In this document: positions 44,460 to 62,772 of the stretch, piece by piece
How positions within the stretch are numbered: position 1 is the stretch's first letter
Layout of the letters: each line of letters starts with the position of its first letter
From: an uncultured Bacteroidales bacterium
Lineage (GTDB): Bacteria; Bacteroidota; Bacteroidia; Bacteroidales; VadinHA17
NCBI GenBank assembly: GCA_963816345.1
Contig: CAWFKI010000005.1
Coordinates: 2,550,053-2,614,052, forward strand
Length of the DNA stretch: 64,000 bases
Direction of reading: 5' to 3'
Made by a program: the position numbers and the translations under genes
The notes under the pieces: model-generated
What the model was told of the DNA's origin: nothing
The model's input: only the letters and a program-made list of their open reading frames with translations
Database searches by the model: none

Positions 44460-45053
44460 ATGGAAATTGATTTTAATAAAGGAAACGGACTTGTACCGGT
44501 AGTCATCCAGGACAGCAGCACCCTGCAGGTTCTGATGGTCGGATATATGAATCAGGAGGCTCTTGAAAAGACCACCGTCGAAAACAGGGTGACTTTCTTC
44601 AGCAGGAGTAAGAACCGCTTATGGACCAAGGGAGAGACTTCCGGAAATTTTCTTTATGTTGAGACGATTCAGCCCGATTGCGATAATGACGCTATCCTGA
44701 TCAAAGTAAGACCCACCGGACCGGTTTGTCATACAGGCAGCACTTCCTGTTTTGCGGAGGAGACTGCAAAGGGATTTATATACCAGCTGGAACAGATTAT
44801 CAACCAGCGCATTGAAGATAACGTTGCTGACTCATACACAAATAAGCTCTACAGGAAAGGCATTAACAAGGTAGCTCAGAAAGTCGGTGAAGAGGCAGTC
44901 GAATTAATTATTGAGGCAAAGGATGATAATATTGAGCTCTTCAGAAATGAATCGGCCGACCTTTTATATCACCTGCTTATATTACTGAAATCCAGGGGCA
45001 CAGATCTTAAGAGCATTGAGGAGGTCCTGAAGGAACGGCACAATGCCCGCTAA
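44460..45053 (+). CDS. hisIE: Bifunctional phosphoribosyl-AMP cyclohydrolase / phosphoribosyl-ATP pyrophosphatase
   Basis: 197 aa. HisI motifs (WTKGETSG, DCDNDA, CHTGS.SCF) followed by the HisE helical domain (EEA.E...A..., ADLLYHLL). Confidence 0.93.
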   Translation: MEIDFNKGNGLVPVVIQDSSTLQVLMVGYMNQEALEKTTVENRVTFFSRSKNRLWTKGETSGNFLYVETIQPDCDNDAILIKVRPTGPVCHTGSTSCFAEETAKGFIYQLEQIINQRIEDNVADSYTNKLYRKGINKVAQKVGEEAVELIIEAKDDNIELFRNESADLLYHLLILLKSRGTDLKSIEEVLKERHNAR

Positions 45054-45153
45054 GCGAAGTCTCCGCTAAGCGAAGTCCCGCTAAGCGAAGTCTCCAGACT
45101 TCGCTTTATCTATTTAATCCTGCCCCGCTAAGCGAAGTCTCCAGACTTCGCTT
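45047..45153. repeat. CCGCTAAGCGAAGTCT direct repeats ending in two copies of the palindrome AAGCGAAGTCTCCAGACTTCGCTT
   Basis: Three tandem 15-16-nt units start inside the last hisIE codons; the gene's TAA is the TAA of the first unit. Perfect palindromes lie at 45083-45106 and 45130-45153. They probably also act as the his operon terminator hairpins. Confidence 0.85.
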
Positions 45154-45233
45154 CATATATATCACAGAATTCATAATTTTAACAGGATCATTAGTTTTTA
45201 AACATTTTTGTTTGTTATTTCAAAAGAAATAAA

Positions 45234-45241
45234 TACTTTTG
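45234..45241 (+). promoter_or_regulatory. Bacteroidetes-type -7 box (TActTTTG) for the aromatic operon leader
   Basis: TAnnTTTG match ending 21 nt upstream of the leader ATG at 45262. Confidence 0.55.
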
Positions 45242-45261
45242 TAACCCAATAAGGCAGTCAA

Positions 45262-45327
45262 ATGAATATTGTGTACAAATATTTTATCTCCTTTTTCTAC
45301 TTCTATTTTTACTTTAAAAACAGATAA
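45262..45327 (+). CDS. Aromatic (Phe/Tyr) leader peptide MNIVYKYFISFFYFYFYFKNR
   Basis: 21-codon ORF in which 6 codons are Phe and 5 are Tyr. It is followed by an intrinsic terminator 13 nt before pheA. Confidence 0.7.
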   Translation: MNIVYKYFISFFYFYFYFKNR

Positions 45328-45367
45328 GGGGATTTTTGTATACAGATATAATTAATTTATATGAAAC

Positions 45368-45400
45368 AAGGGTCCCGCAAAGGGGCCCTTATTTGTTTTT
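45368..45400 (+). terminator. Intrinsic terminator of the Phe/Tyr attenuator
   Basis: 9-bp stem AAGGGTCCC/GGGGCCCTT (one G-U), loop GCAAA, followed by ATTTGTTTTT. Confidence 0.7.
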
Positions 45401-45412
45401 AAAACATTTAAG

Positions 45413-46243
45413 ATGAAGGTATCGATACAGGGAGAAGCTGGAAGTTTTCATGAAGTTGCGGCAAGGCAGTACTTCAGCTATGATGAGGTTGAAATTGTTC
45501 CATGCCCGACATTTGATCTCACTCTGAACACACTCAAAGCCGGAGAATCAGATTTTGCCGTTATGGCAATAGAGAATGCCCGCTCGGGAAGCATTCTTTA
45601 TAACTACACACTCATAAGGGAATCAGGGCTGAAGATCCTCGGAGAACACAATCTCAGGATAAAGCAGAACCTTATGGCGCTTCCCGGACAGCTTATCACC
45701 GATATCAGGGAGATAAGGTCCCACCCGATAGCCCTGGCCCAGTGCATGACATTTCTGAATCAGTTTCCCGGCATGACCCTTATTGAAAGCGACGATACGG
45801 CAGGAAGTGCAAAACAGATCAGCGAGAATCAGCTGAAAGGAGTGGCAGCCATAGCATCCGTTGCATCTGCTGAAATATATGGTCTTGATATACTTGCCGA
45901 AGGCATTGAGACATACAAACAAAATTATACCAGGTTTCACATAATCGGAAGTGAAGATAAGGGGAATACGAAAGGGAACAAGGTATCCATCTGTTTTTCA
46001 ACGGGTCATAAGCCCGGATCACTGGCAAAAGTTCTGGTCAAGCTTGCGGAACTGGAGATAAACCTCTCTAAGATTCAATCGGTTCCAAGGCTCAACGGTG
46101 AGTGGGAATATATGTTCTATCTCGACCTGGAGCTGAACAAGAATACAAAATCAGAGGTAATAAAAAGGGTACTGAATAACCACACAAGCAACCTTGAGAT
46201 ACTTGGTGTATATTTTAAAGGAGACATGCTATATGAAAGTTAA
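45413..46243 (+). CDS. pheA: Prephenate dehydratase (PDT + ACT domains)
   Basis: 276 aa. Motifs: IQGEAGSFHE, an ESDDTAGSA variant of the TRF-region, and a C-terminal ACT domain (KVSICFSTGHKPGSLAKVL). Confidence 0.9.
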   Translation: MKVSIQGEAGSFHEVAARQYFSYDEVEIVPCPTFDLTLNTLKAGESDFAVMAIENARSGSILYNYTLIRESGLKILGEHNLRIKQNLMALPGQLITDIREIRSHPIALAQCMTFLNQFPGMTLIESDDTAGSAKQISENQLKGVAAIASVASAEIYGLDILAEGIETYKQNYTRFHIIGSEDKGNTKGNKVSICFSTGHKPGSLAKVLVKLAELEINLSKIQSVPRLNGEWEYMFYLDLELNKNTKSEVIKRVLNNHTSNLEILGVYFKGDMLYES

Positions 46244-47420
46244 ACCGGCTGACCGTACAGGCAATGTACAGGAATACTATTTTTCGCAAAAACTTGCCCA
46301 GATAGACAGGATGCGGAAAGAAGGAGCTGACGTCATTAATCTGGGAATCGGCAGCCCCGACCAGGCTCCATCGGAAAGCACCATCGCGGCCCTGACTGCT
46401 TATGCAGGAAAACCGACATCACATGGCTATCAGAGTTATACAGGAGTATATGCCCTCAGAAAGGCATTTGCTGAGTGGTATAAGAAATACTTTCATGTTG
46501 ATCTTAACCCCGAGAATGAGATACTACCTTTAATGGGCAGTAAGGAGGGAATAATGCATGTCAGCATGGCGTTTGTAAATCCGGGCGATGAGGTGCTGAT
46601 ACCCGATCCCGGATATCCCACCTACTCATCTGTTACAAATCTTGTCGGGGGTATTCCGAGGAAATACGACCTGACGGAGGAGAATGGCTGGCTTCCCGAT
46701 CTCGAAGCCCTTGAAAACAGCGACCTGAGCAGGGTCAAGGTGATGTGGGTAAACTATCCCAACATGCCTACCGGGACCAAAGGATCAGTGCAGCTCTTCG
46801 AAAAGCTTGTATCATTTTCAATGAAACATGGAATACTACTTTGCAATGACAATCCTTACAGCTTCATTTTAAATAAGGATTATCACAGTATTCTTCAGGT
46901 TGATGGCGCCATGGAAACAGCCCTGGAGATGAATTCGCTTAGTAAATCACAGAATATGGCAGGCTGGCGCATAGGAATGGTGGCAGGCCACAGAGAGTAT
47001 ATAAAGGAGGTGCTGAAAGTAAAAAGCAATATGGACTCAGGCATGTTCCTGCCGATGCAGATGGCTGCTGTTGAAGCGCTTAACAACCCTGACTCATGGT
47101 ATGACCAGGTAAATGAAGTATATATTAAACGGAGGAAGAGAGTTGAAGAAATAATGGACCTGCTTAAATGCAGGTATGACAAAAGCCAGGCCGGATTGTT
47201 TGTCTGGGGGCGAATACCGGATAATATCAGGAGCTGCGAGGATTTCACTTCGGAAATACTTGAAAAATCACATGTATTTATCACACCAGGGTTTATCTTT
47301 GGGAAAAATGGCGAAAGATATATCCGCATCTCACTCTGCGCTACAGAGGAAAGACTGACGGAGGCGCGGGAGAGGATTATATCAATAGATTCCCCTCCCT
47401 GGAGGGGGGGTGGGTTCTAG
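46233..47420 (+). CDS. Class I/II PLP-dependent aminotransferase (probable aromatic/prephenate aminotransferase)
   Basis: Start at ATG 46233 (MKVKPADR), overlapping the pheA 3' end. Motifs: NPNNPTG-like region and SLSKSQNMAGWRIG (PLP lysine). The last roughly 9 codons (SPPWRGGGF*) are encoded by a copy of the intergenic repeat. Confidence 0.85.
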   Translation: MKVKPADRTGNVQEYYFSQKLAQIDRMRKEGADVINLGIGSPDQAPSESTIAALTAYAGKPTSHGYQSYTGVYALRKAFAEWYKKYFHVDLNPENEILPLMGSKEGIMHVSMAFVNPGDEVLIPDPGYPTYSSVTNLVGGIPRKYDLTEENGWLPDLEALENSDLSRVKVMWVNYPNMPTGTKGSVQLFEKLVSFSMKHGILLCNDNPYSFILNKDYHSILQVDGAMETALEMNSLSKSQNMAGWRIGMVAGHREYIKEVLKVKSNMDSGMFLPMQMAAVEALNNPDSWYDQVNEVYIKRRKRVEEIMDLLKCRYDKSQAGLFVWGRIPDNIRSCEDFTSEILEKSHVFITPGFIFGKNGERYIRISLCATEERLTEARERIISIDSPPWRGGGF

Positions 47421-47741
47421 GAAGAAGCACAGGGCTCAGGGCACGGGGCTCAGGCATTGCCAGCCGTAGCTTTCTTCGACCTCCGTAGCTTTAGCGGAGG
47501 AGGTAGCGAAGGCTGGGCACAGAGCAGTAAGCAGTACTTCAGCAGGATCCCCTCCTGGGAGGGGGCAGGGGTGGGTTCCAGGAAGGGGCACAGGGCACAG
47601 AGCACAGAGCACAGGCATTGCCAGCTGTAGCTTTCTTCGACCTCCGTAGCTTTAGCGGAGGAGGTAGCGGAGGCTGGGCACAGAGCAGTAAGCAGTACTT
47701 CAGCAGGATCCCCTCCTGGGAGGGGCAGGGGTGGGTTTAAA
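47391..47741. repeat. Tandem duplication of a roughly 160-bp composite unit (partial + 2 full copies)
   Basis: Units at about 47421-47581 and 47582-47741 are near-identical. Each contains (GCACAGG)4, a nested hairpin region CCAGCC...CCTCCG TAGCTTTAG CGGAGG...GGCTGG, GCAGTAAGCAGTACTTCAGC, and CCCCTCCTGGGAGGGG(G)CAGGGGTGGGTT. The terminal motif also occurs at 47391-47420. Confidence 0.9.
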
Positions 47742-47782
47742 GTAAGAAGAATAGTTATTAAATAAGATTACATATAAAAAAC

Positions 47783-48628
47783 ATGACAATTGCAGTTATT
47801 GGAGTAGGGCTCATAGGCGGATCGCTTGTAGTGGATCTCCGCAAGAGGAAATTTGCAGACAGGATTATCGGAGTGGACAGTAATATCCATCACCAGAATA
47901 TTGCTCTACTCTGCGGACTTGTGGATGAGAATGACACCCTGGAAAACGCTGTTGAAAAAAGCGATCTTATCATTCTTTCAACTCCTGTGAATACAAACTC
48001 TGCGATGTTGCCCGGGATACTCGATATGATTGCCGGCACCTCGAAAGTGGTGACTGATATGGGCTCCACAAAAGCAAGCATTGCCAGGGCTTCGGTTAAC
48101 CATCCTGCAAGAGGTCGCTATGTTGCAGTCCACCCTATGGCCGGAACAGAATATTCCGGACCTCTGGCTGCCATTGGAAAACTTTTTGATTATAAGAACG
48201 CCATTATATGTGACCGGGAGCTCAGCGATCCTGATGCCCTTGAACTTGTCGAGAAAATGCTCGATACTCTTAATATGCATAAAGTGTACATGAGCTCAAG
48301 CGACCACGATGTTCATGTGGCCTATATTTCACATATTTCCCACATTACATCTTTCTCACTCGCCCTCTGTGTTCTGGATAAGGAGAATGAAGAAGGGAAT
48401 ATCCTTACACTTGCCGGTGGTGGTTTCGAAAGTACCGTACGGCTTGCAAAGAGCAACGGAGATACCTGGGCGCCTATCTTCGTGGAAAACTCCGAATTCA
48501 TCCTCGAAGTAATGGATACATATATAGATAAAATGAATTCCTTCAGAAAGATGATAACCGATAAGGATGTCAGCGGTTTGAAATCCCTTATGGAAGAGGC
48601 AAATAAGATAAGGAAGATATTGAATTAA
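47783..48628 (+). CDS. tyrA: Prephenate dehydrogenase
   Basis: 281 aa. Rossmann motif IAVIGVGLIGGS plus HPMAG and SHDVHVAYISHISH motifs. Confidence 0.88.
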   Translation: MTIAVIGVGLIGGSLVVDLRKRKFADRIIGVDSNIHHQNIALLCGLVDENDTLENAVEKSDLIILSTPVNTNSAMLPGILDMIAGTSKVVTDMGSTKASIARASVNHPARGRYVAVHPMAGTEYSGPLAAIGKLFDYKNAIICDRELSDPDALELVEKMLDTLNMHKVYMSSSDHDVHVAYISHISHITSFSLALCVLDKENEEGNILTLAGGGFESTVRLAKSNGDTWAPIFVENSEFILEVMDTYIDKMNSFRKMITDKDVSGLKSLMEEANKIRKILN

Positions 48629-48643
48629 TAATAAATATTAATT

Positions 48644-49759
48644 ATGGAAGTCAAACTTGAGAATCCACTCATAAAAGACTGGAGAGGTTATAAAGGGCGG
48701 CCTTTTTTAATTTCAGGTCCGTGCAGTGCAGAAACAGAGGAGCAGGTAATGGAGACCGCCAGGAAACTGGCTGAGATAAAAGAGGTCAGTGTGTTTCGCT
48801 CCGGGATATGGAAACCAAGGACCCGCCCCAACTCCTTCGAAGGTGTCGGAAGCGAGGGACTGAAATGGCTTCGCAGGGTCAAACAGGAAACAGGGTTGCT
48901 CGTCGGAACAGAGGTAGCCAATGAAAAGCATGTGTATGAAGCGCTTAAATATGGTATCGACCTGCTGTGGATCGGCGCCAGGACCTCCGTTAATCCGTTT
49001 ACAGTACAGGAGATCTCCGATGCCCTTCAGGGCGTGGACGTTATGGTACTGGTGAAAAATCCGATCAACCCTGATATCGAATTATGGATAGGCGCCATAG
49101 AGCGTGTTGCCAGGGCAGGGATAACAAGGATAGGAGCTATTCACCGCGGATTCTCCTCTTACGAAAAAACCCTGTACAGGAACCAGCCTAACTGGCAGCT
49201 GCCTATTGAACTCCGCAGGCGTATCCCCGACCTTCCCATAATCTGCGACCCGAGTCATATTGCCGGTGCAAGGCAATATCTTCATGAGATCTCCCAGAAA
49301 GCCATGGATCTTAACTTCGACGGATTAATGCTTGAGTCGCATATAAATCCTGCAAAAGCCCTGAGCGATGCCGCTCAACAGATTACACCAAACGATCTGA
49401 AAGAGCTTCTGAGCAGGCTTATCCTCCGGAGTCCGGACACTTCCGATCCGAAATTACTGGATGTCCTTGGGGAACTGAGGCAGCAGATCGATGTCTATGA
49501 TGATCATCTTCTTGATCTGATGGAAAAAAGAATGAAGGTGGCCGAAACGATCGGACTCTATAAAAAGGAAAATAATATCACTATATTGCAGAGCCTGCGA
49601 TGGGATGAAATTATAAGCAAAGCAATAATCAAAGGCAAGGCAAAAGGCCTCAGTTCTGAACTTATAGATACCATTTTCAAAGCTATACACCAGGAATCAA
49701 TAAACCATCAGATCAGAGTCATGAATAATGGAGTGAAAGATCCTGAAAAGAAAAAATAA
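48644..49759 (+). CDS. Bifunctional type I-beta DAHP synthase / chorismate mutase (type II, C-terminal)
   Basis: 371 aa. The DAHPS/KDSA-family barrel (GPCS.E, KPRT.P.SFEG, DPSH) is followed by an AroQ-type CM domain (LRQQIDVYDDHLLDLMEKRMKVAETIGLYK). Confidence 0.88.
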   Translation: MEVKLENPLIKDWRGYKGRPFLISGPCSAETEEQVMETARKLAEIKEVSVFRSGIWKPRTRPNSFEGVGSEGLKWLRRVKQETGLLVGTEVANEKHVYEALKYGIDLLWIGARTSVNPFTVQEISDALQGVDVMVLVKNPINPDIELWIGAIERVARAGITRIGAIHRGFSSYEKTLYRNQPNWQLPIELRRRIPDLPIICDPSHIAGARQYLHEISQKAMDLNFDGLMLESHINPAKALSDAAQQITPNDLKELLSRLILRSPDTSDPKLLDVLGELRQQIDVYDDHLLDLMEKRMKVAETIGLYKKENNITILQSLRWDEIISKAIIKGKAKGLSSELIDTIFKAIHQESINHQIRVMNNGVKDPEKKK

Positions 49760-49775
49760 ATTAATCAGCGAATCA

Positions 49776-50990
49776 ATGGAAAGATGTGTAGTACCCTCCG
49801 GACTTAAGGGCCGGATTAAAGCCCCGGCATCAAAGAGTATGACACAGCGAGCCATAGCCGCTGCCCTTCTGGCTGAGGGACAAAGCACTATATACAATCC
49901 CTCCTATTGTGACGATTCGCTGGCTGCAATGAGTGTAGCGTGCGGACTTGGTGCAAGAGTTGAGCCAATGCCGGATGAAATGAAAATTTTTGGCTCAGCC
50001 ATTCTTAAGGAGCCAAAACTGAACTGCGGGGAATCCGGCCTGGCGATAAGGATGTTCTCCCCTATTGCAGCCCTCTACCCGGCTGAGATTACAATGGTTG
50101 GAGCTAACTCTCTTAAAAAAAGGCCCATGGATATGATCGGAAAGGCCCTCGTTCAGCTGGGAGTTAAATTCACAAGCAGCGGAGGTTTTCTTCCGCTTAC
50201 AATCCAGGGACCACTTAAAGGCGGATCATGCGAAATTGACGGCTCTGTGAGCAGCCAGCTGCTGACGGGTCTGCTGATGGCATTGCCTCTGGCACAGGAA
50301 GACTCTGAGATAAAGGTTAAGAACCTGAAGAGCAAGCCTTATATAGACATGACCATCCAGCTGCTCAGGTCGTTCGGGATCTCTGTCAACAGTACAGGTT
50401 ACGACCTGTTTAAAATCCCGGGGAATCAGAAATATAAAGCTCAGGAATACACTGTGGAAAGTGACTGGAGCGGCGGAGCATTCCTGCTTATTGCCGGCGC
50501 CATAAACGGACATTTAGATATAACCGGTCTGCGGAGAGACAGCAGACAGAGCGATAGATCAGTATTGAACGCCCTGGAAAAAGCAGGCGCATCAGTAAAT
50601 ATAAGGGAAGATGGCATTGGGATCTCCGTATCTGAATTAAAAGCCTTTGAATTTGATGCGACCGAATCACCTGACCTCTTCCCTCCTCTTGTGGCACTGG
50701 CGGCCTATTGCAGGGGCACCTCGACAATAAAGGGAGTATCAAGGCTTATTTACAAGGAGAGCGACAGGGCAGCATCACTTCGGGAAGAGTTCGCTAAGAT
50801 GAATATCGGAATAGAGGTCGACGGCGATATCATGAAAGTGACAGGCGGTCGGCCCGGAGGAGCACATGTGGAATCGCACGACGACCATCGTATTGCAATG
50901 GCAGTTGCAGTAGCTGCGCTCGGAGCATCAGGCAATGTCTGTATCAGGGATTCTCAATGTGTTGCAAAATCTTATCCCGGGATTTTTTGA
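49776..50990 (+). CDS. aroA: 3-phosphoshikimate 1-carboxyvinyltransferase (EPSP synthase), C-terminus truncated by a frame change in a T6 run
   Basis: 404 aa with EPSPS motifs (KSMTQRA, SSQLLTGLLMA, DHRIAMA). The ORF ends ...KSYPGIF* at the T6 run 50983-50988. The +1 frame continues DDLRSLGATVIE* to 51027, which is the normal EPSPS ending. Confidence 0.9.
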   Translation: MERCVVPSGLKGRIKAPASKSMTQRAIAAALLAEGQSTIYNPSYCDDSLAAMSVACGLGARVEPMPDEMKIFGSAILKEPKLNCGESGLAIRMFSPIAALYPAEITMVGANSLKKRPMDMIGKALVQLGVKFTSSGGFLPLTIQGPLKGGSCEIDGSVSSQLLTGLLMALPLAQEDSEIKVKNLKSKPYIDMTIQLLRSFGISVNSTGYDLFKIPGNQKYKAQEYTVESDWSGGAFLLIAGAINGHLDITGLRRDSRQSDRSVLNALEKAGASVNIREDGIGISVSELKAFEFDATESPDLFPPLVALAAYCRGTSTIKGVSRLIYKESDRAASLREEFAKMNIGIEVDGDIMKVTGGRPGGAHVESHDDHRIAMAVAVAALGASGNVCIRDSQCVAKSYPGIF

Positions 50991-51073
50991 TGATTTGCGA
51001 TCGCTGGGAGCAACAGTAATCGAGTGAAAAAAGTAAAAAAGTTGATTTTGTGATGATAATTTAAAAATTTAAT

Positions 51074-51081
51074 TATTTTTG
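51074..51081 (+). promoter_or_regulatory. Bacteroidetes-type -7 box (TAttTTTG) for the trp leader / trpB2
   Basis: TAnnTTTG match ending 32 nt upstream of the leader ATG at 51113. Confidence 0.5.
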
Positions 51082-51112
51082 TGTAACGGCTGCAATCAGC
51101 AGAGTAATAATT

Positions 51113-51175
51113 ATGAAAGTAAAAATGTTTAATATCTGGTCCTGGCGCAACTTAAGCGATTATGCTGTGAAATAA
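51113..51175 (+). CDS. Trp leader peptide MKVKMFNIWSWRNLSDYAVK
   Basis: 20-codon ORF with two TGG codons two positions apart (51137-51139 and 51143-51145). Its 3' end is complementary to part of the downstream terminator. Confidence 0.65.
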   Translation: MKVKMFNIWSWRNLSDYAVK

Positions 51176-51209
51176 GCCGTTATATAACATTTAAATGATA
51201 TTTATCTAT

Positions 51210-51239
51210 AAAGGCACGCTTTTCACAGCGTGCCTTTTT
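51210..51239 (+). terminator. Intrinsic terminator of the Trp attenuator
   Basis: 11-bp perfect stem AAAGGCACGCT/AGCGTGCCTTT, loop TTTCAC, T run. GCTGTGAAA at 51164-51172 (end of the leader ORF) is a perfect complement of TTTCACAGC at 51221-51229, giving an antiterminator. Confidence 0.8.
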
Positions 51240-51277
51240 AATTTTGCATTTTCAATCAACCATCAAAACTAAATAAA

Positions 51278-52645
51278 ATGGAAAAACTCAGAAAAATCAT
51301 CCTAAGTGAAAAAGAAATGCCAACGCACTGGTATAATATTATGGCAGATATGCCAAACAAGCCATTGCCTCCGTTACATCCCGGAACAAAAAAGCCTGTA
51401 GGTCCTGAGGATCTTGCAGCTGTTTTCCCCATGGAACTGATCAAACAGGAGGTATCAACAGAAAGATATATCGAGATACCTGATGAGGTCCTTTCTCTTT
51501 ATCATACCTATCGTCCGTCACCGCTCTTCAGGGCTCTGGGTCTCGAGAAGGCTATTGGTACAAAAAGCAAAATATACTACAAGTATGAGGGAGGCAACTA
51601 TTCCGGTTCGCATAAAGCCAATACTGCCATTCCCCAGGCCTATTACAACAAGAAGGAGGGAGTACGCAGGATCACCACTGAGACCGGCGCCGGGCAGTGG
51701 GGAAGTGCGATGAGCTTTGCCTGTAACCATTTCGGTCTCGAACTGCTGGTCTTCATGGTAAGGGTCAGCTACGAACAGAAGCCTGGCCGTAAGCTTCTTA
51801 TGAATGCCTATAATGCAAAGGTGGTTCCATCACCCAGCTCAATGACCGAGGCCGGCAGAAAAGTACTTGAAATGTTTCCTGATTCCCCGGGCAGCCTCGG
51901 GATCGCAATCTCTGAAGCGATGGAGGTGGCAGTTCAGGATCCCTATACCAAATACTCACTCGGAAGCGTTCTCAATCATGTTATCCTGCATCAGACCATT
52001 ATCGGACAGGAAGCCCTTATACAGATGGGAAAGACAGATGATTATCCGGATGTGGTAATCGGTTGTTTCGGTGGCGGTTCCAACTTCTCCGGAATAGCAT
52101 TTCCGTTTCTGAGGGAAAATCTGGTCAATGGTAAGAAGACAAGGCTTCTGACAGTTGAACCAGCTTCATGCCCTAAGCTTACAAAAGGAAAATTCATGTA
52201 TGACTTTGGTGATTCTGCAGGAATGACCCCTCTTCTCCCGATGTACACCCTGGGTCATAATTTCATCCCTGCAAAGATCCATGCAGGCGGCCTTCGCTAT
52301 CATGGCGCCGGTGTTCTGGTAAGCCAGCTTCTGAAGGACGGATTCATCGAGGCCAGGGCCAAGATGCAGAGGGAATGTTTTGAAGCCGGAGTGCTTTTTG
52401 CAAGAACCGAAGGGATCCTGCCGGCACCCGAATCTACATACGCTATTGCTGCAGCTCTTGATGAAGCAAGGACAGCCGATCTCGAGGGAGTATCAAAAAC
52501 AATTCTCTTTAACCTGAGCGGACACGGTCATTTTGATATCTCGGCTTATGAGAAATATTTTGAGGGAAATCTGCCCGACCATGAGATGACAACCGCAGAG
52601 GTCGAGGAGGCTATCTCAAAAATAGATCTGCCGGTATTGATGTAA
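51278..52645 (+). CDS. trpB: TrpB2-type (long, stand-alone) tryptophan synthase beta-like PLP enzyme
   Basis: 455 aa. The N-terminal extension EMPTHWYNIMADMPNKPLPPLHP is typical of TrpB2. Motifs: GSHKANTA (PLP lysine), TETGAGQWGSA, GGGSNF. Confidence 0.88.
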   Translation: MEKLRKIILSEKEMPTHWYNIMADMPNKPLPPLHPGTKKPVGPEDLAAVFPMELIKQEVSTERYIEIPDEVLSLYHTYRPSPLFRALGLEKAIGTKSKIYYKYEGGNYSGSHKANTAIPQAYYNKKEGVRRITTETGAGQWGSAMSFACNHFGLELLVFMVRVSYEQKPGRKLLMNAYNAKVVPSPSSMTEAGRKVLEMFPDSPGSLGIAISEAMEVAVQDPYTKYSLGSVLNHVILHQTIIGQEALIQMGKTDDYPDVVIGCFGGGSNFSGIAFPFLRENLVNGKKTRLLTVEPASCPKLTKGKFMYDFGDSAGMTPLLPMYTLGHNFIPAKIHAGGLRYHGAGVLVSQLLKDGFIEARAKMQRECFEAGVLFARTEGILPAPESTYAIAAALDEARTADLEGVSKTILFNLSGHGHFDISAYEKYFEGNLPDHEMTTAEVEEAISKIDLPVLM

Positions 52646-52684
52646 AATTATTTTCTTCTCTTTTAGTTTAAAACCCATCCCCTT

Positions 52685-52940
52685 CCCCTTCCCTTAAGAG
52701 TAAGGGAAGGGGTAAGAGCCTTATCATAAATGACTTAGTTTTTCCCTCCCCTTATTTTTTAAGGGGAGGGTCAGGGAGGGGTTAAAAATAAAATAAAGAG
52801 GGGCCAGGGGTGGGTTTAAGGGAATGGCCAGGGCTCCGGGTTAGCAGAAAAAACGGCGAAGTCTGGAGACTTCGCCGAGCGTGCCACGATAGCTATCGTT
52901 ATGAGAGTAAGTTTAACGGCGAAGTCTGGAGACTTCGCCG
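52685..52940. repeat. Cluster of perfect hairpins/palindromes downstream of trpB2
   Basis: CCCCTTCCCTTA-AGAG-TAAGGGAAGGGG (52685-52712). CCCTCCCCTTA-TTTTT-TAAGGGGAGGG (52744-52770). CAGGGGTGGGTT motif (52805-52817). CGGCGAAGTCTGGAGACTTCGCCG twice (52854-52877, 52917-52940). ACGATAGCTATCGT sits between the last two. Confidence 0.9.
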
Positions 52941-52963
52941 GGCAGTAAGCCGGTAGCTGTCTC

Positions 52964-53770
52964 CTAGAAATCAGAATATGATGTCGGATGAAGCAGGTAA
53001 ATATTTGCTTTGGAGACTGTGTTCTTATATTCATCCAAAGCAGATAATTTCTTCCATTCAGGTGAACTGCCGAATTCCTTCCAGTGCGCATCGTGCGATT
53101 TCATATCCGCAAAGGTGGTCATGTACATCAGGTTTGGCTTCTGGCTGCCGGCAAGAACTTCTCCGTAAAATACAGCATTGAAATTAAGCTTCTTAAACAG
53201 AGCAATTTCGCCTCCCTTGTTGAACATTTCTATCTTTTTGGCAGCCTTTGCCTCAGTGGCACTTTCATAACTGCGTAATTCATAAATCCTTTCCGAAGCA
53301 GGTGTTGAGTAACTGGGAGCCATGAACTGAGGCATATCAAGGAATGCCTTCAGAAGGATGCTCTGATGCCTCTGATATGGAGGATTGTCGATTGGCGCAT
53401 CAAGGAAGGACTTTCCTGCTGCTTCATAAGTCTTATCCTTCTCCAGGGTAGCAGGCAACAGCAAAAACTGATCAAAGGAGTTATATGGAATAAAAACATA
53501 TATCATCTTCCCGAAGGATGCAGTGTCGCTCTCCACAGGCTTGAATACGCCTACCTTTTGAATACCTGCCCGGTGCAGCGCAGGAATAAAGGCATCTTTC
53601 AGAAAAGCATCAACCTTTCCTGACTGAACACTATTTGCGACCTGGTAGATCCGAATCTCGTAATACTGCTGTTTTACAGGAGCTGTGCCATAGCTTGTGA
53701 ATGAACATGCTATAAATAACAACAATGGAAGAGCCATGAGAGGCCGTCTGATAAATTCTGATTTTTTCAT
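52964..53770 (-). CDS. NIPSNAP-family protein (two NIPSNAP domains), secreted
   Basis: 268 aa with a signal peptide. It has two repeats of the YE(I/L)R.Y... ferredoxin-like NIPSNAP pattern (YYEIRIYQV, IYELRSYES...MFNKGGEIALF). Confidence 0.65.
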   Translation of the reverse strand: MKKSEFIRRPLMALPLLLFIACSFTSYGTAPVKQQYYEIRIYQVANSVQSGKVDAFLKDAFIPALHRAGIQKVGVFKPVESDTASFGKMIYVFIPYNSFDQFLLLPATLEKDKTYEAAGKSFLDAPIDNPPYQRHQSILLKAFLDMPQFMAPSYSTPASERIYELRSYESATEAKAAKKIEMFNKGGEIALFKKLNFNAVFYGEVLAGSQKPNLMYMTTFADMKSHDAHWKEFGSSPEWKKLSALDEYKNTVSKANIYLLHPTSYSDF

Positions 53771-53827
53771 AGATGAGGTTATTAATTTTTAACTACATTA
53801 AAGATAGGCATTTTAACCAGGTCAGGC

Positions 53828-55186
53828 TCATTCATTACTGGTATTCTCAATATGCACGAAATTAAGCGGTTTACGAAACCAGTTTGTCCTGTAGGCTCCG
53901 TATAGTACGCCGGCAGAAAGCCAGCACATTCCAACGATCTTGGCATTGAGTCCCAGGCTTAGCCACAGGAAGAAACAGATTGTAAATCCAAGGAATGGAA
54001 TAAGTAGGTTAATGAATGACTTTTTTTCATTATGTAAAAAATAACGGGTGAAAGAGGAGGCATTTACGCCCATAAAAGCAATAAGGGCTCCGAAATTCAA
54101 TAGCTGGGCTCCAATCGGATAGGTAAGCAAAAATGCGCCTCCGAGAGTTAATGCACCAACAAGTATTATATTATTTGATGGTACCCGTGTGCGGGCATTC
54201 ACAACACCAAAGAATTTCTTTGGAATAGCATTATCGCGTCCCATTCCATAGAGAAGCCTGCCGGCTCCGAGCTGTGCCCCGGCACCTGAACCAATAGTTG
54301 CTACAAGCAGGGCAAGGTTTACCGTATGAAAAAGCCACTGGCCGCCTGCTCTGCCGGCAACGAAACAGAAAGCGGTATCCTGATCAGGGAAAGTTGTTGC
54401 CGGCCATACCATCTGGGCGAAATAGACCTGAACCGAAGCAAGGACCCCGGTAATAATGCAGACAAGAACAGAAGCCAGAAGGATATTGCGTCTTGGATTA
54501 TGTACCTCTTCCGACAGCGTCGATATTCCATCAAATCCGATATACGTCAGTACTGCAAGTGATGCACCCGCAGAAACTCCGGAAAATGAAAAAGTTTTCG
54601 GATCATAAAAGGGCCTTGTCCAGTCAGCTGCTCCGGCGGGTGGGTGAATAAGCAGATACCTTACCGCTGCTCCGAGAAACAACACTATCACTACTCCCAG
54701 CCCTGTTGCAATTACTGCATTTGTCCTTGAACTCGATTCGATGCCACGAAGGTTCATTCCTGTAAAAAGTAATGTGAAAACCACGAGGTAAACCCCCAAC
54801 GGTATCTCAGGAATCAGATTGATTGCAGCTTTGCTGACCCATATCACGCATATTATCGGATTCATTACATAATCGAAGATCATGCCCCAGCCGACAAAGT
54901 AACCCAATGCAGGATGGATCTCCCTGCTGACATACGTATAGGCGGAACCGGCGCTGGGATATGCATTGGCCATCTTTCCGTAACTTATTGCCGTAAAAAG
55001 CATTCCGACCATCCCGATCAGGATCGTAGTGACAACATGCCCTTTGGCCAGGCCGACGGCAGCACCGAAAAGCGGCATCGGAGCAGTAGGCTGAATAAGG
55101 ATTATACCGTACAGCACAAGGGCTGACAAACCCAGAACCCGCTTTAAGCCTGGACCGGAACCGGACGATGATTGGGTATTACTCAT
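53828..55186 (-). CDS. APC-superfamily amino acid/polyamine permease
   Basis: 452 aa with about 12 TM segments. The N-terminal LKRVLGLSALVLYGIILIQPTAP pattern resembles PuuP/amino-acid permeases. Confidence 0.8.
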   Translation of the reverse strand: MSNTQSSSGSGPGLKRVLGLSALVLYGIILIQPTAPMPLFGAAVGLAKGHVVTTILIGMVGMLFTAISYGKMANAYPSAGSAYTYVSREIHPALGYFVGWGMIFDYVMNPIICVIWVSKAAINLIPEIPLGVYLVVFTLLFTGMNLRGIESSSRTNAVIATGLGVVIVLFLGAAVRYLLIHPPAGAADWTRPFYDPKTFSFSGVSAGASLAVLTYIGFDGISTLSEEVHNPRRNILLASVLVCIITGVLASVQVYFAQMVWPATTFPDQDTAFCFVAGRAGGQWLFHTVNLALLVATIGSGAGAQLGAGRLLYGMGRDNAIPKKFFGVVNARTRVPSNNIILVGALTLGGAFLLTYPIGAQLLNFGALIAFMGVNASSFTRYFLHNEKKSFINLLIPFLGFTICFFLWLSLGLNAKIVGMCWLSAGVLYGAYRTNWFRKPLNFVHIENTSNE

Positions 55187-55349
55187 AATTTTAAAGGGAT
55201 TTAAAGATACAATGTCATATATGATTATCTATATTTGGAAACATCTTTCCGGGAATTTCAAATATGCAAAATAAAAGGTAAATAATCCGAAATAGATTAA
55301 TTATTTTAGACAAATTTTGAAACTGAACAATTAACATTTAATTCAAATC

Positions 55350-56474
55350 ATGGAAAACCAAAACAACCCTTCTGTAAAAAGATTACAGTCGCTTGATGCA
55401 CTTCGTGGATTCGATATGTTCTGGATCATGGGCGGAGAAGGAATTTTCGTTGGTCTTGCCACCCTCACCGGCTGGCCGGTATTAACCTGGTGGGCAGGAC
55501 AACTTGACCATGTGCCATGGCACGGTTTCCATTTTTATGATATGATCTTTCCCCTGTTTCTCTTCATAGCCGGAATATCATTTCCGTTTTCCCTGGCCAA
55601 GAGAATCAGGAATAATGACAGCAGGCAATCAATATATAAACACGTAATAGGCCGTGGATTGATACTTGTCCTTTTAGGCATTGTCTATAATAACGGGGTA
55701 AATTTCGATTTTGCCAATATGCGCTACGGAAGCGTCCTTGGACGTATCGGTCTGGCATGGATGTTTGCCGCCATTATTTTCATGAATACAAATCTCACCT
55801 GGCGTATAGTCTGGCTCGTCGGAATACTGGTTGTCTACTGGCTGCTGTTCCTGATCTTTCCTGCCCACGATCTTGGCGCTACCGACCCCTTCTCAATGGA
55901 AGGGAACCTGGCCGGACATATTGACCGCCTCCTGTTACCCGGGAGATTTTGCTGCTACAAATTCGGCGATAGTGAAGGTATCATGAGTACAATACCTGCA
56001 ATCTCAACAGCCCTGCTTGGTATGCTTACCGGAGAGTTTGTAAAGTCACAATACCTGGCCGCTAAACCCGTGCGAAAGGTTCTTTATATGATCCTGGCTG
56101 CAATAGGCTTAATTATCCTTGGCAGGATATGGAATCTCGGTTTTCCTATCAATAAATACCTGTGGTCAAGTTCATTCGTCTGTTTTGTTGGCGGATTGAG
56201 CCTGCTCCTCTTCTCAATCTTCTATCTGATAATAGATGTATGGCAATATAATAAATGGATACTCTTCTTTGTGGTAATAGGCATGAACCCTATAACCATT
56301 TACCTAACAGGCAGAATTGTCAATTTCGGTGCGGCATCCAGGTTCTTCTTCGGCGGAATTACTGCCCTTCTGCCCGAATCATGGGCACCTTTCATGGACG
56401 GATTGGGGATAACCACCGTGGCATGGGTATTCCTTTATATTCTGTACAAAAAGAAGATATTTCTGAAAGTATAA
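55350..56474 (+). CDS. DUF5009/DUF1624 membrane protein (heparan-alpha-glucosaminide N-acetyltransferase-like, NagX-like)
   Basis: 374 aa, polytopic. The N-terminal RLQSLDALRGFDMFWIMG signature is typical of this acyltransferase-like family. Confidence 0.65.
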   Translation: MENQNNPSVKRLQSLDALRGFDMFWIMGGEGIFVGLATLTGWPVLTWWAGQLDHVPWHGFHFYDMIFPLFLFIAGISFPFSLAKRIRNNDSRQSIYKHVIGRGLILVLLGIVYNNGVNFDFANMRYGSVLGRIGLAWMFAAIIFMNTNLTWRIVWLVGILVVYWLLFLIFPAHDLGATDPFSMEGNLAGHIDRLLLPGRFCCYKFGDSEGIMSTIPAISTALLGMLTGEFVKSQYLAAKPVRKVLYMILAAIGLIILGRIWNLGFPINKYLWSSSFVCFVGGLSLLLFSIFYLIIDVWQYNKWILFFVVIGMNPITIYLTGRIVNFGAASRFFFGGITALLPESWAPFMDGLGITTVAWVFLYILYKKKIFLKV

Positions 56475-56477
56475 AAA

Positions 56478-56955
56478 AAGCGAAGTCTGGAGACTTCGCT
56501 TAACAACTTCGCTTAGCAACTTCGCTTAGCGACCCGCTGGCGCCGATTTGTAATTGGTGCCATATCGATTTCCGCTGGCGCCGATTTGTAATCGGTGCCA
56601 TAAACAAAATTACATAAATATTAAATAGGCACGGATTGCAAAGCGCTGCCCGCTGGCAGACCCCCAAACCCCCTAAAGGGGGCTTTTTTATCGTGATCTA
56701 CAAGTTTTCAGTATTACGCGAAGTGTCATACCACGACACCGCTGTGTCAGCCAAGCTCAGCGAAGGCTGATTCTGAATACCGGATACCGGGTTGGCACGG
56801 ATTGCAAATCTGCGCCATAATCGGTGTCATAAATGAAAATTATATTGTAAGTGATGCGGATAACTGCACTGATGCTAATTGGCACGGATTGTAAATCCGC
56901 GCCAGCGCAAGGGAGGAGGGGCCTCCGCTGGCGCCGATTTGCAATCGGTGCCATA
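56478..56955. repeat. Dense repeat/hairpin field
   Basis: Palindrome AAGCGAAGTCTGGAGACTTCGCTT at 56478-56501. AACTTCGCTTAGC x2 at 56505-56530. CCGCTGGCGCCGATTTGYAATYGGTGCCATA x3 at 56534-56564, 56572-56602 and 56925-56955. The inverted relative GGCACGGATTGYAAA...GCC x3 at 56628-56650, 56794-56816 and 56881-56907. Confidence 0.9.
56669..56689 (+). terminator. Candidate intrinsic terminator
   Basis: CCCCC-TAAA-GGGGG followed by C and T6. The short 5-bp GC stem makes this only moderately convincing. Confidence 0.4.
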
Positions 56956-56972
56956 GATAAAATATACCATCT

Positions 56973-58048
56973 TTATTTTTTGACAATGAGTACTATTGCA
57001 TCATTTGCATTGATTGTAAATGATTTTCCGGATGGAATTTTACCATATAAATTTTCAGCTATCTTCCAACCCTCCTTCAGTTTCAGGTCTGCAGTACCAT
57101 CTTCATTATTATAATTGATAAGTACTACCACCCGTTCATTATCACTGATACTATGCTCTGTCACACCGATATAAGGATTGTTCTGAGTTAAGACCCTGTC
57201 CTGGATAACATCTTTTGCAACAAGCTTGTATATATTATAGTAAGCCGGCATTCCCATGTCAAAGGCACCGGGGGTATTCGCCAGGTTGCTCTCCAGCGGG
57301 AAGGTAAGCAGGTAACTTTCCCTTGCCATATTGTGAGACCATCAGCGCCGGATCCCCATCAGGCTCTCTCCCCAGCACTTCAAGATCGACAGGAGTTATG
57401 TTGAGCTTTCGTTCAGAGAATGTCTCAAAATTAAGGCTGTCATTCCCGATCCTGGAATTAAAATGCAAAGCTCCGAATACGCCGGATATTAGTCCGGATC
57501 TCTATCCCCATTGGTTCAGTCAGTGTTGGCAGATATACAAAATCAAGGGAAAGATACAGAGTGGCGCCCTGTTTTACTTTGTCAAGTATCCCATACCAGG
57601 AATCTTTAAAAATGGCATACAATCCCTTTACTGAAGGAAGCATATAAACAGCGGCTTCCCTCAGCTCCTTGCCTGATTTCTGGAACTGAATATCAAATCC
57701 GGTGCTTTGCCAGTATAAAGCTGCTGTAAGCCGCTGCCCAGCTGTCCTGTCCTTCCGTCAGAATGCAAACAGCTTCTGTTTTACGTGGAGGAAGTGTTTT
57801 AAAGGGAAGTTTCTCAAGAAAACCGGAGAAATTTTTAAATTCGGCGAGTACCGGCTTGGGAGTTCTGTCTTCTCTTATTAGTCCAGCTGCTGCTCTACTG
57901 CCGAGTAATTATATGGAGGATAATCAAGCTGAGCGATCAAAACCGCACCACCACAACATCCCTTTGCAATCATGTGCCCAGTTTGAAAAAAGTGCCGTCC
58001 GGGCAAAAGCGGCTTTTTCCTTCTCTCCTGCATCATCGGGCCCATCAT
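56973..58048 (-). pseudogene. Degraded glycoside-hydrolase remnant (clan GH-A barrel end + GH42-like middle/C-terminal domains), N-terminal half missing
   Basis: At least six colinear fragments in different frames: ...GMLWWCGFD / QLDYPPYNYSAVEQQ / GLIREDRTPKPVLAEF...AVCILTEGQDSWAAAY / TGFDIQFQKSGKELREAAVYMLPSVKGLY... / 57468-57259 / 57329-56973. The upstream end abuts the repeat module starting about 58049. Confidence 0.6.
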
Positions 58049-58415
58049 CTTTCTTTTTACGCAAAAAGAAAGTACCAAAGAAAATGCGCCGGAAAAGACA
58101 ACCCCACCCTGTTTGTCCGCCTGCTGCACAAGGCCTTAAAGGCGCCACCAAACAGGGTGCGGTTCGCACCTTTTCCGGTTTGCCCTCGCGCCGCTAAAGA
58201 TGATAATTTTGGAAATGCGAATGGACAGGCCACGCCATGGCGTGGCCCTACGACCTCAAACATACAATAATGTAGGGTCATGCCATGGCATGACCCTTTC
58301 AATCGTAATCCAGGCACTTTAAAATCCTTTCCATTTTATGTCATTAGAATCACAATTACGCGAGCACAATTGAAGTTTTCCTCTGCAGGTTGTGTGCTCC
58401 ATGCTTTCCGCTCTC
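58049..58415. repeat. Composite hairpin module, left copy (inverted relative to 61209-61526)
   Basis: The reverse complement of 58181-58300 matches 61279-61398 with about 4 differences in 120 nt. The ends also match (CTTTCTTTTTACGCAAAAAGAAAG; heptamer/GCATGGAG block). The central hairpin differs, and about 75 nt (58303-58375) are extra. Confidence 0.85.
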
Positions 58416-58513
58416 CGCTCTACGCTCAAATCTCAAATCTCCGATTACCGATTACCGATTACCGAATACCTTTTAACCCTGTACTCGGTGCCCTGTGCCC
58501 TGAGCCCTGCGCC
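58404..58513. repeat. Phase-locked mosaic heptanucleotide array (about 15.5 units, four sequence families)
   Basis: On the plus strand: CTTTCCG CTCTCCG CTCTACG CTCAAAT CTCAAAT CTCCGAT TACCGAT TACCGAT TACCGAA TACCTTT TAACCCT GTACTCG GTGCCCT GTGCCCT GAGCCCT GCGCC. The 7-nt register is unbroken, and it starts 3 nt after the dctA stop. Confidence 0.9.
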
Positions 58514-58516
58514 ATA

Positions 58517-59761
58517 TCACCCCATCTCTTTCCTTGCCACGTCCAGATCAATCTCCTTTTCCCATTTTGCAATGACTACCGTTGCAACGGAATTCCCAAT
58601 AAGGTTTGTGATAGCTCTCGCCTCACTCATGAAGCGGTCAATGCCAAGAATTAAAGCAAGCGAGGCAACAGGGATATTTCCAACTGTCGGAAGAAGGGCC
58701 GCAAGAGTTATAAAGCCACTGCCTGTCACCCCGGCAGCGCCCTTGGATACGAGCAGCAGGACAAGCAGCATCGTCACCTGGTGAGTGAGAGTCAAAGGTG
58801 TATTTGTAGCCTGCGCAAGAAATACTGCTGCCATTGTCAGGTAAATTGAAGTGCCGTCGAGATTAAAGGAATATCCTGTGGGAATTACCAGTCCCACAAC
58901 AGATTCCGATACTCCCCCCTTTTGCAGCTTAGCCATCAGACTAGGCAGTGCAGCCTCTGACGACGAAGTGCCAAGCACGATAAGGATCTCTTCCTTTATA
59001 AATCCGAGCACTCTGAAAATATTAAAGCCAGCGTACTTCAGGATACTTCCTAACACAATAAATATGAATAGAATACAAGTTATATAAAACGACAGCATCA
59101 GCTGTCCCAGTGATGCAAGGGAGCCAACTCCGTATTTGCCTATTGTAAATGCCATTGCTCCAAAAGCTCCGACAGGTGCAACTTTCATGATGATATTAAT
59201 TACGGCAAACAGACCGGCTTCAAGAGATTTGATCCCCCTGAGTACAGGCCTGGCTTTTTCGCCTATCCTCGAGAGAGCGATACCGAAGAGAACTGAAAAA
59301 AACAGTATCTGCAGCAGATCGCCATTCGAAAGGGCATTAATAATATTATCAGGTATTATATGAAGCAGGAAGTTCACCACTCCGGTTGTCTTGCTTTGTG
59401 TGACATATGAAGCAACTGCATCGGCATCAAGGGTTGAGGGGTTTACATTCATGCCCGACCCTGGCTTGAGGATATTTATCACCCCAAGGCCGATAATGAG
59501 CGCCAGTGTTGTGATTACTTCAAAATAGATTATTGCTTTGATACCTACCCTTCCAACCTTTTTTATGTCCTGCATACCCGCAATCCCGTTCACTATTGTA
59601 CAGAAAATTACGGGTGCAATCATCATTTTCACAAGCTTGATGAACCCATCGCCCAGCGGCTTCATTTTGACTGCAATTGCCGGCCAGAAGAAACCAATTG
59701 CAATGCCGATCAATATGGCTGTAATAACCTGGGCATATAGACTTTTAAAGATCTTTGGCAT
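58517..59761 (-). CDS. dctA: C4-dicarboxylate/cation symporter (DAACS family)
   Basis: 414 aa, colinear with E. coli DctA: [38 protein letters not shown]. Confidence 0.88.
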
Positions 59762-59870
59762 AATTTGTTCAAGGAATAATATGCTATAATATTAATGAAA
59801 TAAAATTAAACTGTATTTTTTTTTATCAGGAAGACCTGAAGAAACTAACTAAACAGGCGCGGATGTGATG

Positions 59871-59894
59871 AAGCGAAGTCTGGAGACTTCGCTT
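59871..59894. repeat. Palindrome AAGCGAAGTCTGGAGACTTCGCTT (family copy)
   Basis: Perfect 24-nt palindrome in the divergent dctA / URO-D intergenic region. Identical to 56478-56501. Confidence 0.9.
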
Positions 59895-59985
59895 AGCTCG
59901 GGTTAAAAAATATTAATCTGATATTGCCAAATCGTTAATATCTTTAAAACTATCAAAAAATCTGATAAAACGTTAAAAAAGAATC

Positions 59986-61526: not shown

Positions 61527-61580
61527 ACAATAAAAAAGTCCCCTTTAGGGGATTTAGGGGTGATAAAAGGGTCTCACATC

Positions 61581-62656: not shown

Positions 62657-62772
62657 GGCATCAGGCATCAGGCTTCAGGCTTCAGGTTAAGCACAGGGCA
62701 CAGGGCGCAGGCACGGGCGCAGGATTAAAAGGTATTCGGTATTCGGTATTCGGTATTCGGTGTCCGGTCGTC
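62657..62772. repeat. Concatenated heptanucleotide arrays
   Basis: (GGCATCA)2 (GGCTTCA)2 GG TTAA (GCACAGG)2 GCGCAGG CACGGGCGCAGG ATTAAAA (GGTATTC)4 GGTGTCC GGTCGTC. The GCACAGG-TTAAAA-GGTAWTC order is the same as on the opposite strand at 58446-58513. Confidence 0.9.

Follow-up and report, generated by a model that had tools for sequence, protein, structure and literature searches.

The described transposases that come closest to the system considered here are those of TnpA_REP subclass 2.6 (Quentin et al. 2018, PMC6006769), which is equivalent to Group 5 among REP-associated tyrosine transposases (RAYTs) (Bertels et al. 2017, PMC5581495), where REP denotes a repetitive extragenic palindrome. 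Subclass 2.6 proteins are found mostly in Bacteroidetes, have a mean length of 179 aa and carry the motifs NH[LIV]H, WQ and YIH[QN]NP (PMC6006769). The genes that encode them have secondary structures of an atypical kind at their flanks; these are devoid of GT[AG]G and recur at other sites of the genome (PMC6006769). Many 2.6 REPs, including those of Aequorivita, Zobellia, Spirosoma, Flexibacter, Owenweeksia and Flavobacterium indicum, combine the foot GCT(A/G/C)N with a TCC/TCT loop (PMC6006769 Table S1), as in the Aequorivita element GCTAG-CGCGAGCG-TCC-CGCTCGTG (PMC6006769). The present analysis concerns a perfect palindrome, GCGAAGTCT(CC/GG)AGACTTCGC, that occurs six times in a 64-kb stretch of DNA, hereafter the window, from an uncultured Bacteroidales bacterium (GenBank assembly GCA_963816345.1, contig CAWFKI010000005.1, positions 2,550,053 to 2,614,052). 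These palindromes are very probably the REPs of a Bacteroidota RAYT, that is of a TnpA_REP or HUH/Y1 single-strand DNA transposase. A REP is a small, selfish hairpin of DNA that a domesticated tyrosine transposase, the RAYT, disperses through intergenic regions. REPs of this kind are already known in Bacteroidota, and the palindrome adds one more member to the family without pointing to a novel mechanism.

An oriented hairpin with a one-sided foot

A first-pass annotation of the window, made from the sequence alone, had reported six perfect palindromes, two flank subtypes and direct repeats of half-sites, all of which were recovered. The core GCGAAGTCTNNAGACTTCGC starts at 45085 and 45132 with the centre CC, and at 52856, 52919, 56480 and 59873 with the centre GG. 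No seventh copy is present in the 64 kb, even when up to two mismatches are permitted, and dinucleotide-preserving shuffles gave no match in 100 trials; with none expected, the six copies are not due to chance. In an independent scan for perfect hairpins, each of the six copies had arms of 11 bp on either side of a 2-nt centre. The unit measures 24-27 bp; as single-stranded DNA it forms a hairpin whose 10-bp stem is closed by a loop of 4 nt, with folding energies between -9.9 and -12.3 kcal/mol and z around -5. Four copies have the flanks AAGCG...CGCTT and two have CGGCG...CGCCG. All six are intergenic, and the whole window yielded no Rfam match at gathering thresholds.

The polarity of the element was read from 115 exact copies, comprising 109 from other genomes and the six of the window, each turned so that its centre reads (C/T)C. 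In this orientation the element consists of a 5' foot, GCTNN, a stem of 10-11 bp (N'N' followed by GCGAAGTC), a 4-nt loop, T(C/T)CA, and the complementary arm. Positions -5, -4 and -3 are occupied by G, C and T in 90, 73 and 84 of the 115 copies, respectively, and the complete GCT is present on the 5' side in 67 copies as against 15 with the mirror AGC on the 3' side. In the window, the foot lies on the side predicted by the centre in six of six copies (three with GCTAA, one with GCTCG, and one each with GCCCG and GTTAA, which deviate by a single base). Since the side of the foot is coupled to the orientation of the loop, the CC and GG centres represent the same element inserted both ways. The earlier proposal of insertion in both directions thus stands for whole elements, which occur in either orientation, and the centre does not simply flip.

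The stem extends into the flanks by compensated pairs. Positions -1 and -2 pair with +1 and +2 in 101 and 98 of the 115 copies, with position -3 pairing in 32, and the types of pair at -1/-2 vary by lineage (AA/TT, CG/CG, CT/AG, GG/CC and GT/AC). This covariation was read at flanking positions that had not been selected for; the hairpins that flank RAYT genes, described below, were left out because perfect palindromy had been the criterion for choosing them and a test on them would have been circular. Covariation in the stem extension, combined with the one-sided foot, argues that a folded single strand is recognised, rather than a duplex by a symmetric dimer.

RAYT genes accompany the palindrome in related genomes

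The palindrome was scanned for in a collection containing one genome per species (596 Gb), in which, by our own arithmetic, its 18 specified bases should produce about nine matches by chance. The 20-mer was found in at least 105 loci, as at least 124 exact copies, from about 61 species-level genomes as counted by record titles. Among the matches listed, about 48 of these genomes belong to Bacteroidota, being distributed across Bacteroidales, Chitinophagaceae, Saprospiraceae, Flavobacteriaceae and Cytophagales, and several are Chloroflexota. The palindrome is therefore spread through many genomes, and a local duplication confined to the window, which the first-pass annotation had named as the outcome that would speak against it, is not what is observed. 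Lone matches with odd centres in Vibrio, Actinomycetota (within a gene), Natronincola, Saccharibacteria and Flavipsychrobacter (within a gene) are possibly chance occurrences and were not used. No exact match was found in 2.9 million viral contigs (IMG/VR), which leaves carriage by phages unsupported.

A motif screen of the open reading frames (ORFs) in the at least 105 loci, followed by tblastn, revealed an ORF of about 188 codons with HUH and tyrosine motifs (NH[IVM]H and Y[IT]HxNP) adjoining the palindrome in 12 loci, as well as a distant homologue (29% identity) in a Chloroflexi locus, also accompanied by the palindrome. The NCBIfam model for the 'REP-associated tyrosine transposase' (NF047646) matches with 99.7 and 88.4 bits at a cut-off of 80, a truncated ORF call scoring 74.8. 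A profile of the family has a sole match in the PDB, 4ER8, the E. coli TnpA_REP bound to its REP, to which it aligns over the HUH and tyrosine motifs. The proteins are 186-188 aa long, and across 11 aligned members N59-H60-x-H62 and H144-x-N146-P147 are invariant and Tyr142 is present in 10, the tyrosine motif ranging over Y[IT]H[QENDYL]NP. Judged by these features, the associated proteins are RAYTs. One of them (locus L089, 7091-7657) has cysteine in place of the catalytic tyrosine (LDCTHYNP), yet possesses perfect REPs on both sides; it may be an inactive copy.

In those palindrome loci where both flanks of the RAYT gene are visible, it is bracketed by inverted copies of the palindrome with their feet outward; bracketing by inverted copies was seen in L013, L014, L016, L021, L051, L059, L063, L089, L099, L107 and others, and in Chitinophagaceae each side carries a second, variable inner hairpin. 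The REP-like nature that the first-pass annotation had suspected is strongly supported by these flanking copies of the exact palindrome, and the RAYT that it proposed to look for was found beside the palindrome in relatives, with none in the window. The same 20-mer accompanies RAYT lineages of Bacteroidales, Chitinophagaceae and Flavobacteriaceae that are only 46-50% identical to one another. One contig binned as Bosea thiooxidans (L013) carries a RAYT of the Chitinophagaceae type together with a REP module of two hairpins, and is probably mis-binned. In a metagenome-assembled genome (MAG), CAVCAV01, which is labelled Christensenella sp. UBA1685, is GC-rich and lies outside Bacteroidota, the 20-mer is embedded at a minimum of 16 loci (L002, L005, L011, L015, L030, L032, L038 and others) within a larger composite repeat, ...CCGTGTAGAGC-GCGAAGTCTGGAGACTTCGC-CCCCATGCGC..., close to a GTAG motif; these 16 loci showed no RAYT belonging to the present family.

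The association also holds when the search starts from the enzyme. A RAYT-first metagenome scan added 80 RAYT loci with 49-72% identity, nearly all of which have perfect hairpins within 300 bp of the gene, with an inverted hairpin pair in at least 31 of the 63 loci where both flanks are readable. The stem differs by RAYT clade (CGAAGTT, CGTAGTC, CRTAGCG, CGGCGGT, CTNAGGC and GCGGCATT), and in a neighbour-joining tree the REP types cluster with the protein clades. Two loci, L107 and L110, whose RAYTs are, at 72% identity, the closest to the Bacteroidales RAYT, carry both of the subtypes seen in the window, CGGCGAAGTCT.. and AAGCGAAGTCT.., and in L107 the gene has a dense mosaic of them on either side.

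An alternative to a domesticated, single-copy RAYT is that the copies are the ends, or palindrome-associated or miniature inverted-repeat derivatives (PATE/MITE), of an autonomous and currently transposing insertion sequence (IS) of the IS200/IS605 type. The associated protein is indeed a Y1/HUH protein with a weak match to Pfam Y1_Tnp (22.2 bits, just below the cut-off of 23), the hairpins are subterminal to the gene as in IS200/IS605, and the presence or absence of copies differs between related genomes. However, the IS200 model NF033573 scores only 17.5 bits at a cut-off of 55, as against the above-threshold match to the RAYT model, and the tyrosine motif is the YxHxNP of RAYTs and not the Y...Q of IS200 (PMC6006769 Table 1). 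In addition, no tnpB accompanies the gene in the loci read, and in the loci sampled the hairpins far outnumber the transposase copies. An active IS is accordingly an improbable source of the repeats, albeit slightly less so than the other rival explanations.

Genomic context, turnover and competing explanations

The positions of the window copies, of the half-units next to them and of the other short repeats are collected in Table 1. The copies neighbour genes that have no functional relation to one another (hisIE, pheA, a PALP enzyme, NIPSNAP, a permease and a symporter). With regard to the names given earlier, hisIE is upheld by its PRA-CH and PRA-PH domains and the PALP enzyme is compatible with TrpB2, but the supposed DUF5009 gene encodes a 374-aa protein without a significant Pfam match. 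The palindrome includes the restriction-site sequences CTGGAG and GAGAC.

Table 1. Palindrome copies, half-units and other short repeats of the window (positions in the 64-kb stretch)
Feature	Position	Strand	Composition	Context
Orphan half-units	45047..45079	+	two units, foot and left arm CCGCTAAGCGAAGTC[T], direct repeat	5' of copy 1
REP copy 1	45080..45106	+	foot GCTAA, stem GCGAAGTC, loop TCCA, stem GACTTCGC, then TT; DNA fold -9.9 kcal/mol, z -5.65	31 bp past hisIE stop
REP copy 2	45127..45153	+	orientation as copy 1	direct doublet with copy 1, 47 bp start to start
REP copy 3	52854..52880	-	CGGCG subtype, minus-strand foot GCTCG, then TTTTTT	direct doublet with copy 4, 63 bp start to start
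REP copy 4	52917..52943	-	CGGCG subtype, foot GCCCG	25 bp past stop of NIPSNAP gene
REP copy 5	56478..56504	-	AAGCG subtype, minus-strand foot GTTAA, then TTTTTTT on minus strand	about 5 bp past stop of 374-aa gene 55350-56474 (+)
Orphan half-units	56505..56530	-	two units, minus-strand GCTAAGCGAAGTT	directly 5' of copy 5 (element orientation)
REP copy 6	59871..59897	-	AAGCG subtype, minus-strand foot GCTAA	divergent intergenic region, SDF symporter start 59761 (-) / URO-D-like gene start 59986 (+)
Heptamer arrays	58427-58480, 62720-62760, 62846-62934; 61208-61256; 47425-47615			intergenic
G/C-run palindromes and CCCCCTAAAGGGGG	52685-52712, 52744-52770, 56660-56694, 61527-61561			

Across genomes, with genes called simply from ORFs, 110 of 130 copies lie in intergenic DNA, and the majority of the 'genic' ones fall inside short, dubious ORFs. 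Of 90 intergenic copies, 60 have a 3' end as the nearest gene end, the median distance to the stop codon being 27.5 bp. Convergent intergenic regions hold 26% of copies as against 16% of the intergenic length, and divergent regions are under-represented. Whereas the first pass had placed most of the window copies just 3' of genes, copy 6 lies between divergent gene starts.

This distribution is also what would be expected if the hairpins were intrinsic terminators or mRNA-stabilising 3' hairpins that had evolved in place and were not relics of a mobile element. Contrary to the earlier statement that the copies have no T tract, the minus strand shows six T residues after 52877-52854 and seven after 56501-56478. 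Three of the six copies fit a terminator-like pattern: T6-T7 directly follows the stem in copies 3 and 5, copy 1 is a weak case and the other three have none. Copy 3 is the top match of the scan, has its T6 on the strand of the upstream gene and looks like a predicted intrinsic terminator of the NIPSNAP gene (52964-53770, minus strand). Nevertheless, terminators that arose independently would not share a 20-mer and an asymmetric foot across some 60 species. Most copies lack a T tract, the T tract of copy 5 lies on the strand opposite the adjacent gene, copy 6 separates two divergent gene starts, orientation relative to transcription is nearly random, and inverted pairs of copies flank RAYT genes. 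An origin as terminators is thus very unlikely; a terminating or RNA-stabilising function, suggested earlier for the element at large, fits two or three copies with T-rich tails and is plausible, from their sequence, as a secondary, exapted role at most. The idea of a DNA uptake sequence (DUS), which in Neisseria occurs as paired inverted copies acting as terminators, was dropped, as the RAYT association explains the data. Least credible of all is the other reading offered at first pass, a site for a dimeric DNA-binding protein, taken here as an operator whose neighbouring genes would make up a regulon: the perfect dyad core, with half-sites of 9-11 bp, and the copy at 59871 in a divergent promoter region would suit it, but the element is asymmetric, with a one-sided foot coupled to its loop, two thirds of copies are 3'-proximal beside functionally unrelated genes, they form tandem and inverted doublets at fixed spacing as well as orphan half-site arrays, and their stem-extension pairs covary as those of a folded single strand would.

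The arrangement and turnover of the copies were also considered. Pairs of copies closer together than 200 bp comprise 26 inverted ones whose feet face outward, four inverted ones whose feet face inward and 13 direct ones. Many of the feet-outward doublets in Bacteroidales MAGs share a fixed spacing of 59-62 bp, and an AA/TT copy is often joined in them with a CG/CG copy. Synteny with 53.9-56.5 kb of the window, at about 75% nucleotide identity, was seen in one locus (L091); directly past the stop codon of the same 374-aa gene it carries a REP that is 100% identical to copy 5 and in the same orientation, whilst the doublet past the NIPSNAP gene (copies 3 and 4) is absent from the orthologous site. 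Copies are therefore both retained and gained or lost between related genomes.

Half-units present a distinct polarity. The window has the half-site AGCGAAGTC at 45053, again 16 nt further on at 45069 and, the middle unit being 1 nt short, after 15 nt at 45084, and GCGAAGT on the minus strand at 56506 and 56519, 13 nt apart. A left-arm half-site lies 5' of the element in eight of 114 elements, two of them in the window and the rest showing that the polarity is repeated in other lineages, and other configurations occur at most three times, these being raw tallies that include neighbouring full or degenerate copies. Orphan half-units always consist of foot and left arm directly 5' of a complete element, a polarity that suggests hairpin slippage or an aberrant RAYT joining event. 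In Salinimicrobium sediminilitoris (L042, 6278-6450) the half-unit ACAGCTTCACGC is repeated about 14 times in tandem abutting a complete REP, and long half-unit arrays also adjoin complete REPs in L064 and L066, which is what the half-sites of the window show, only on a larger scale.

Taking the palindromes as REPs of a RAYT, a mode of origin can be proposed. By analogy with E. coli TnpA_REP (4ER8), one strand would fold into the hairpin when single-stranded, for example at a replication fork, and the RAYT would recognise hairpin and foot and cut and rejoin the DNA, thereby dispersing or maintaining copies, as the structure and biochemistry of the E. coli enzyme suggest. The source genome would be expected to encode such a RAYT, which would act on the six window copies. 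Over evolutionary time copies would have been seeded, singly or as doublets and in either orientation, into intergenic DNA; those disrupting promoters or genes would have been purged, leaving the excess just downstream of stop codons, and some T-tailed copies may have come to serve as transcription terminators or 3' stabilisers.

Several observations weigh against this interpretation. The canonical foot GT[AG]G is replaced by GCTNN. No RAYT gene was found in the 64-kb window by tblastn with nine RAYT queries, and the cognate enzyme is seen in relatives only. Both window doublets, at 47 and 63 bp, are direct and do not have the inverted layout of a REPIN (a REP doublet forming a hairpin). In co-directional intergenic regions, 32 copies are sense and 20 antisense to transcription, a weak bias. 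Per-genome copy numbers are lower bounds only (at least seven copies in at least five loci of MAG CAWJVS01, and at least 16 loci in MAG CAVCAV01); classical REPs exceed 100 copies per genome. As to the class of the enzyme, the RAYTs are probable members of subclass 2.6 on the basis of motifs, length, taxon and REP style, an assignment that follows the published description of the subclass. Their W motif reads W[TSEK], where that of the subclass is WQ, and no biochemistry for subclass 2.6 or Group 5 RAYTs was found in the literature.

A further, tentative suggestion is that GCGAAGTCT(SS)AGACTTCGC represents an unusually constrained REP 'code', belonging either to very old, vertically kept REP-RAYT systems homogenised by the continual action of their RAYTs or to REPtrons, each being a RAYT gene with its flanking REPs, that move between phyla, and that the polar half-sites are footprints of RAYT cleavage and joining. 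What points in this direction is that one 20-mer is common to RAYTs 46-50% identical in three Bacteroidota orders and to the 29% identical homologue of Chloroflexi, and is unchanged at an orthologous site beside genes that have diverged by about 25%. We regard this suggestion as speculative and, on balance, doubtful; were it true, the half-site footprints would indicate cleavage at the foot or else within or beside the loop.

Other repeats of the window and comparison with known systems

The window harbours further repeat families. Between 56533 and 56963 lies a third palindrome family of at least six copies, CCGCTGGCGCCGATTTGTAATCGGTGCCA and TTGGCACGGATTGCAAATCYGCGCCA, which is nearly identical to the subclass 2.6 REP of Flavobacterium johnsoniae, GGCACGGATTGCAAATCCGCGC, and similar to REPs of Bacteroides xylanisolvens (both PMC6006769 Table S1) as well as to the RAYT-flanking hairpins of L147, L148 and L164. 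An inverted repeat of about 370 bp (58049-58441 / 61200-61525), the central 141 nt of which are about 94-97% identical, brackets the SDF symporter gene (58517-59761, minus strand), REP copy 6 and the URO-D-like gene (59986-61209, plus strand); it may represent an intergenic mosaic that is invertible or has been duplicated, or no more than DNA rich in REPs. Inside its arms (58228-58297 / 61283-61351) is a canonical GTAG-footed REP doublet, GGCCACGCCATGGCGTGGCC-CTAC, spacer, GTAG-GGTCATGCCATGGCATGACC, in which the GTAG feet face each other and which resembles published subclass 2.4 REPs with CATG loops. Given this second, GTAG-footed type, the source genome appears to host more than one REP/RAYT system.

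Other repeats are of a simpler kind. Intergenic tandem arrays of heptamers comprise (CCGATTA)n and its complement (GGTATTC)n, (GAGCGTA)n and GGGCACA-like runs. Just past an aminotransferase gene (46194-47420), a G-rich unit of 161 bp forms two tandem copies with 92% identity (47407-47728), and motifs from it such as GAGGGGCAGGGGTGGGTT recur at 52798. There are also perfect palindromes of G/C runs, CCCCTTCCCTTAAGAGTAAGGGAAGGGG and CCCTCCCCTTATTTTTTAAGGGGAGGG. A further sequence, CCCCCTAAAGGGGG, has a T run behind it; it resembles a terminator and occurs in either orientation.

In practical terms, the palindromes, and with them at least two other palindrome families of the window, should be annotated as REP-type repeats and not as regulatory sites, and repeats of this type explain oddities of assembly and alignment in the intergenic DNA of Bacteroidota MAGs. 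The analysis supplies a concrete substrate, GCTAA-GCGAAGTCTCCAGACTTCGC, with matching RAYT sequences for the least characterised RAYT group (2.6 / Group 5), and the conservation across orders, together with retention at an orthologous site, would be useful for the study of how REP populations persist. Interest in the element is modest, and lies in one exact hairpin that is common to divergent RAYTs across orders and even phyla and in a ready pair of substrate and enzyme.

A search of the literature for the palindrome strings returned unrelated primer matches only. With rho-independent terminators the palindrome has in common a GC-containing 10-bp stem, a 4-nt loop and, in two copies that lie shortly past stop codons, a T6-T7 tail; it differs in that four copies have no T tract, unrelated genes and different species carry an identical sequence, and one copy lies between divergent promoters. 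The palindrome resembles the REPs, bacterial interspersed mosaic elements (BIMEs) and REPINs of E. coli and Pseudomonas (RAYT Groups 2 and 3; 4ER8) in being a short hairpin of extragenic DNA whose 5' foot is conserved, in enclosing a RAYT gene between inverted copies, in the co-evolution of REP sequence and RAYT, and in an associated protein whose only homologue in the PDB is 4ER8. The doublets of related genomes, with two subtypes in alternating orientation at a fixed spacing, recall the Y and Z REPs of BIMEs and REPINs. Unlike those classical elements, the palindrome has the foot GCTNN instead of GT[AG]G, a perfect stem without a bulge and hosts in another phylum, and its two doublets in the window are direct rather than inverted.

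The likeness to subclass 2.6 extends to both partners. Hosts in Bacteroidota, a transposase of about 180-190 aa with NH[LIV]H and YIH[QN]NP and a C-terminal SS motif, flanking hairpins without GT[AG]G, a GCT foot, a TCC/TCT loop and further copies in the genome are all features of the subclass. Against this background, the palindrome is set apart by its stem, GCGAAGTC, which is missing from the published table of 2.6 REPs (PMC6006769), and by the sharing of a single 20-mer between RAYTs that are 46-50% identical and, at 29%, a RAYT of Chloroflexi.

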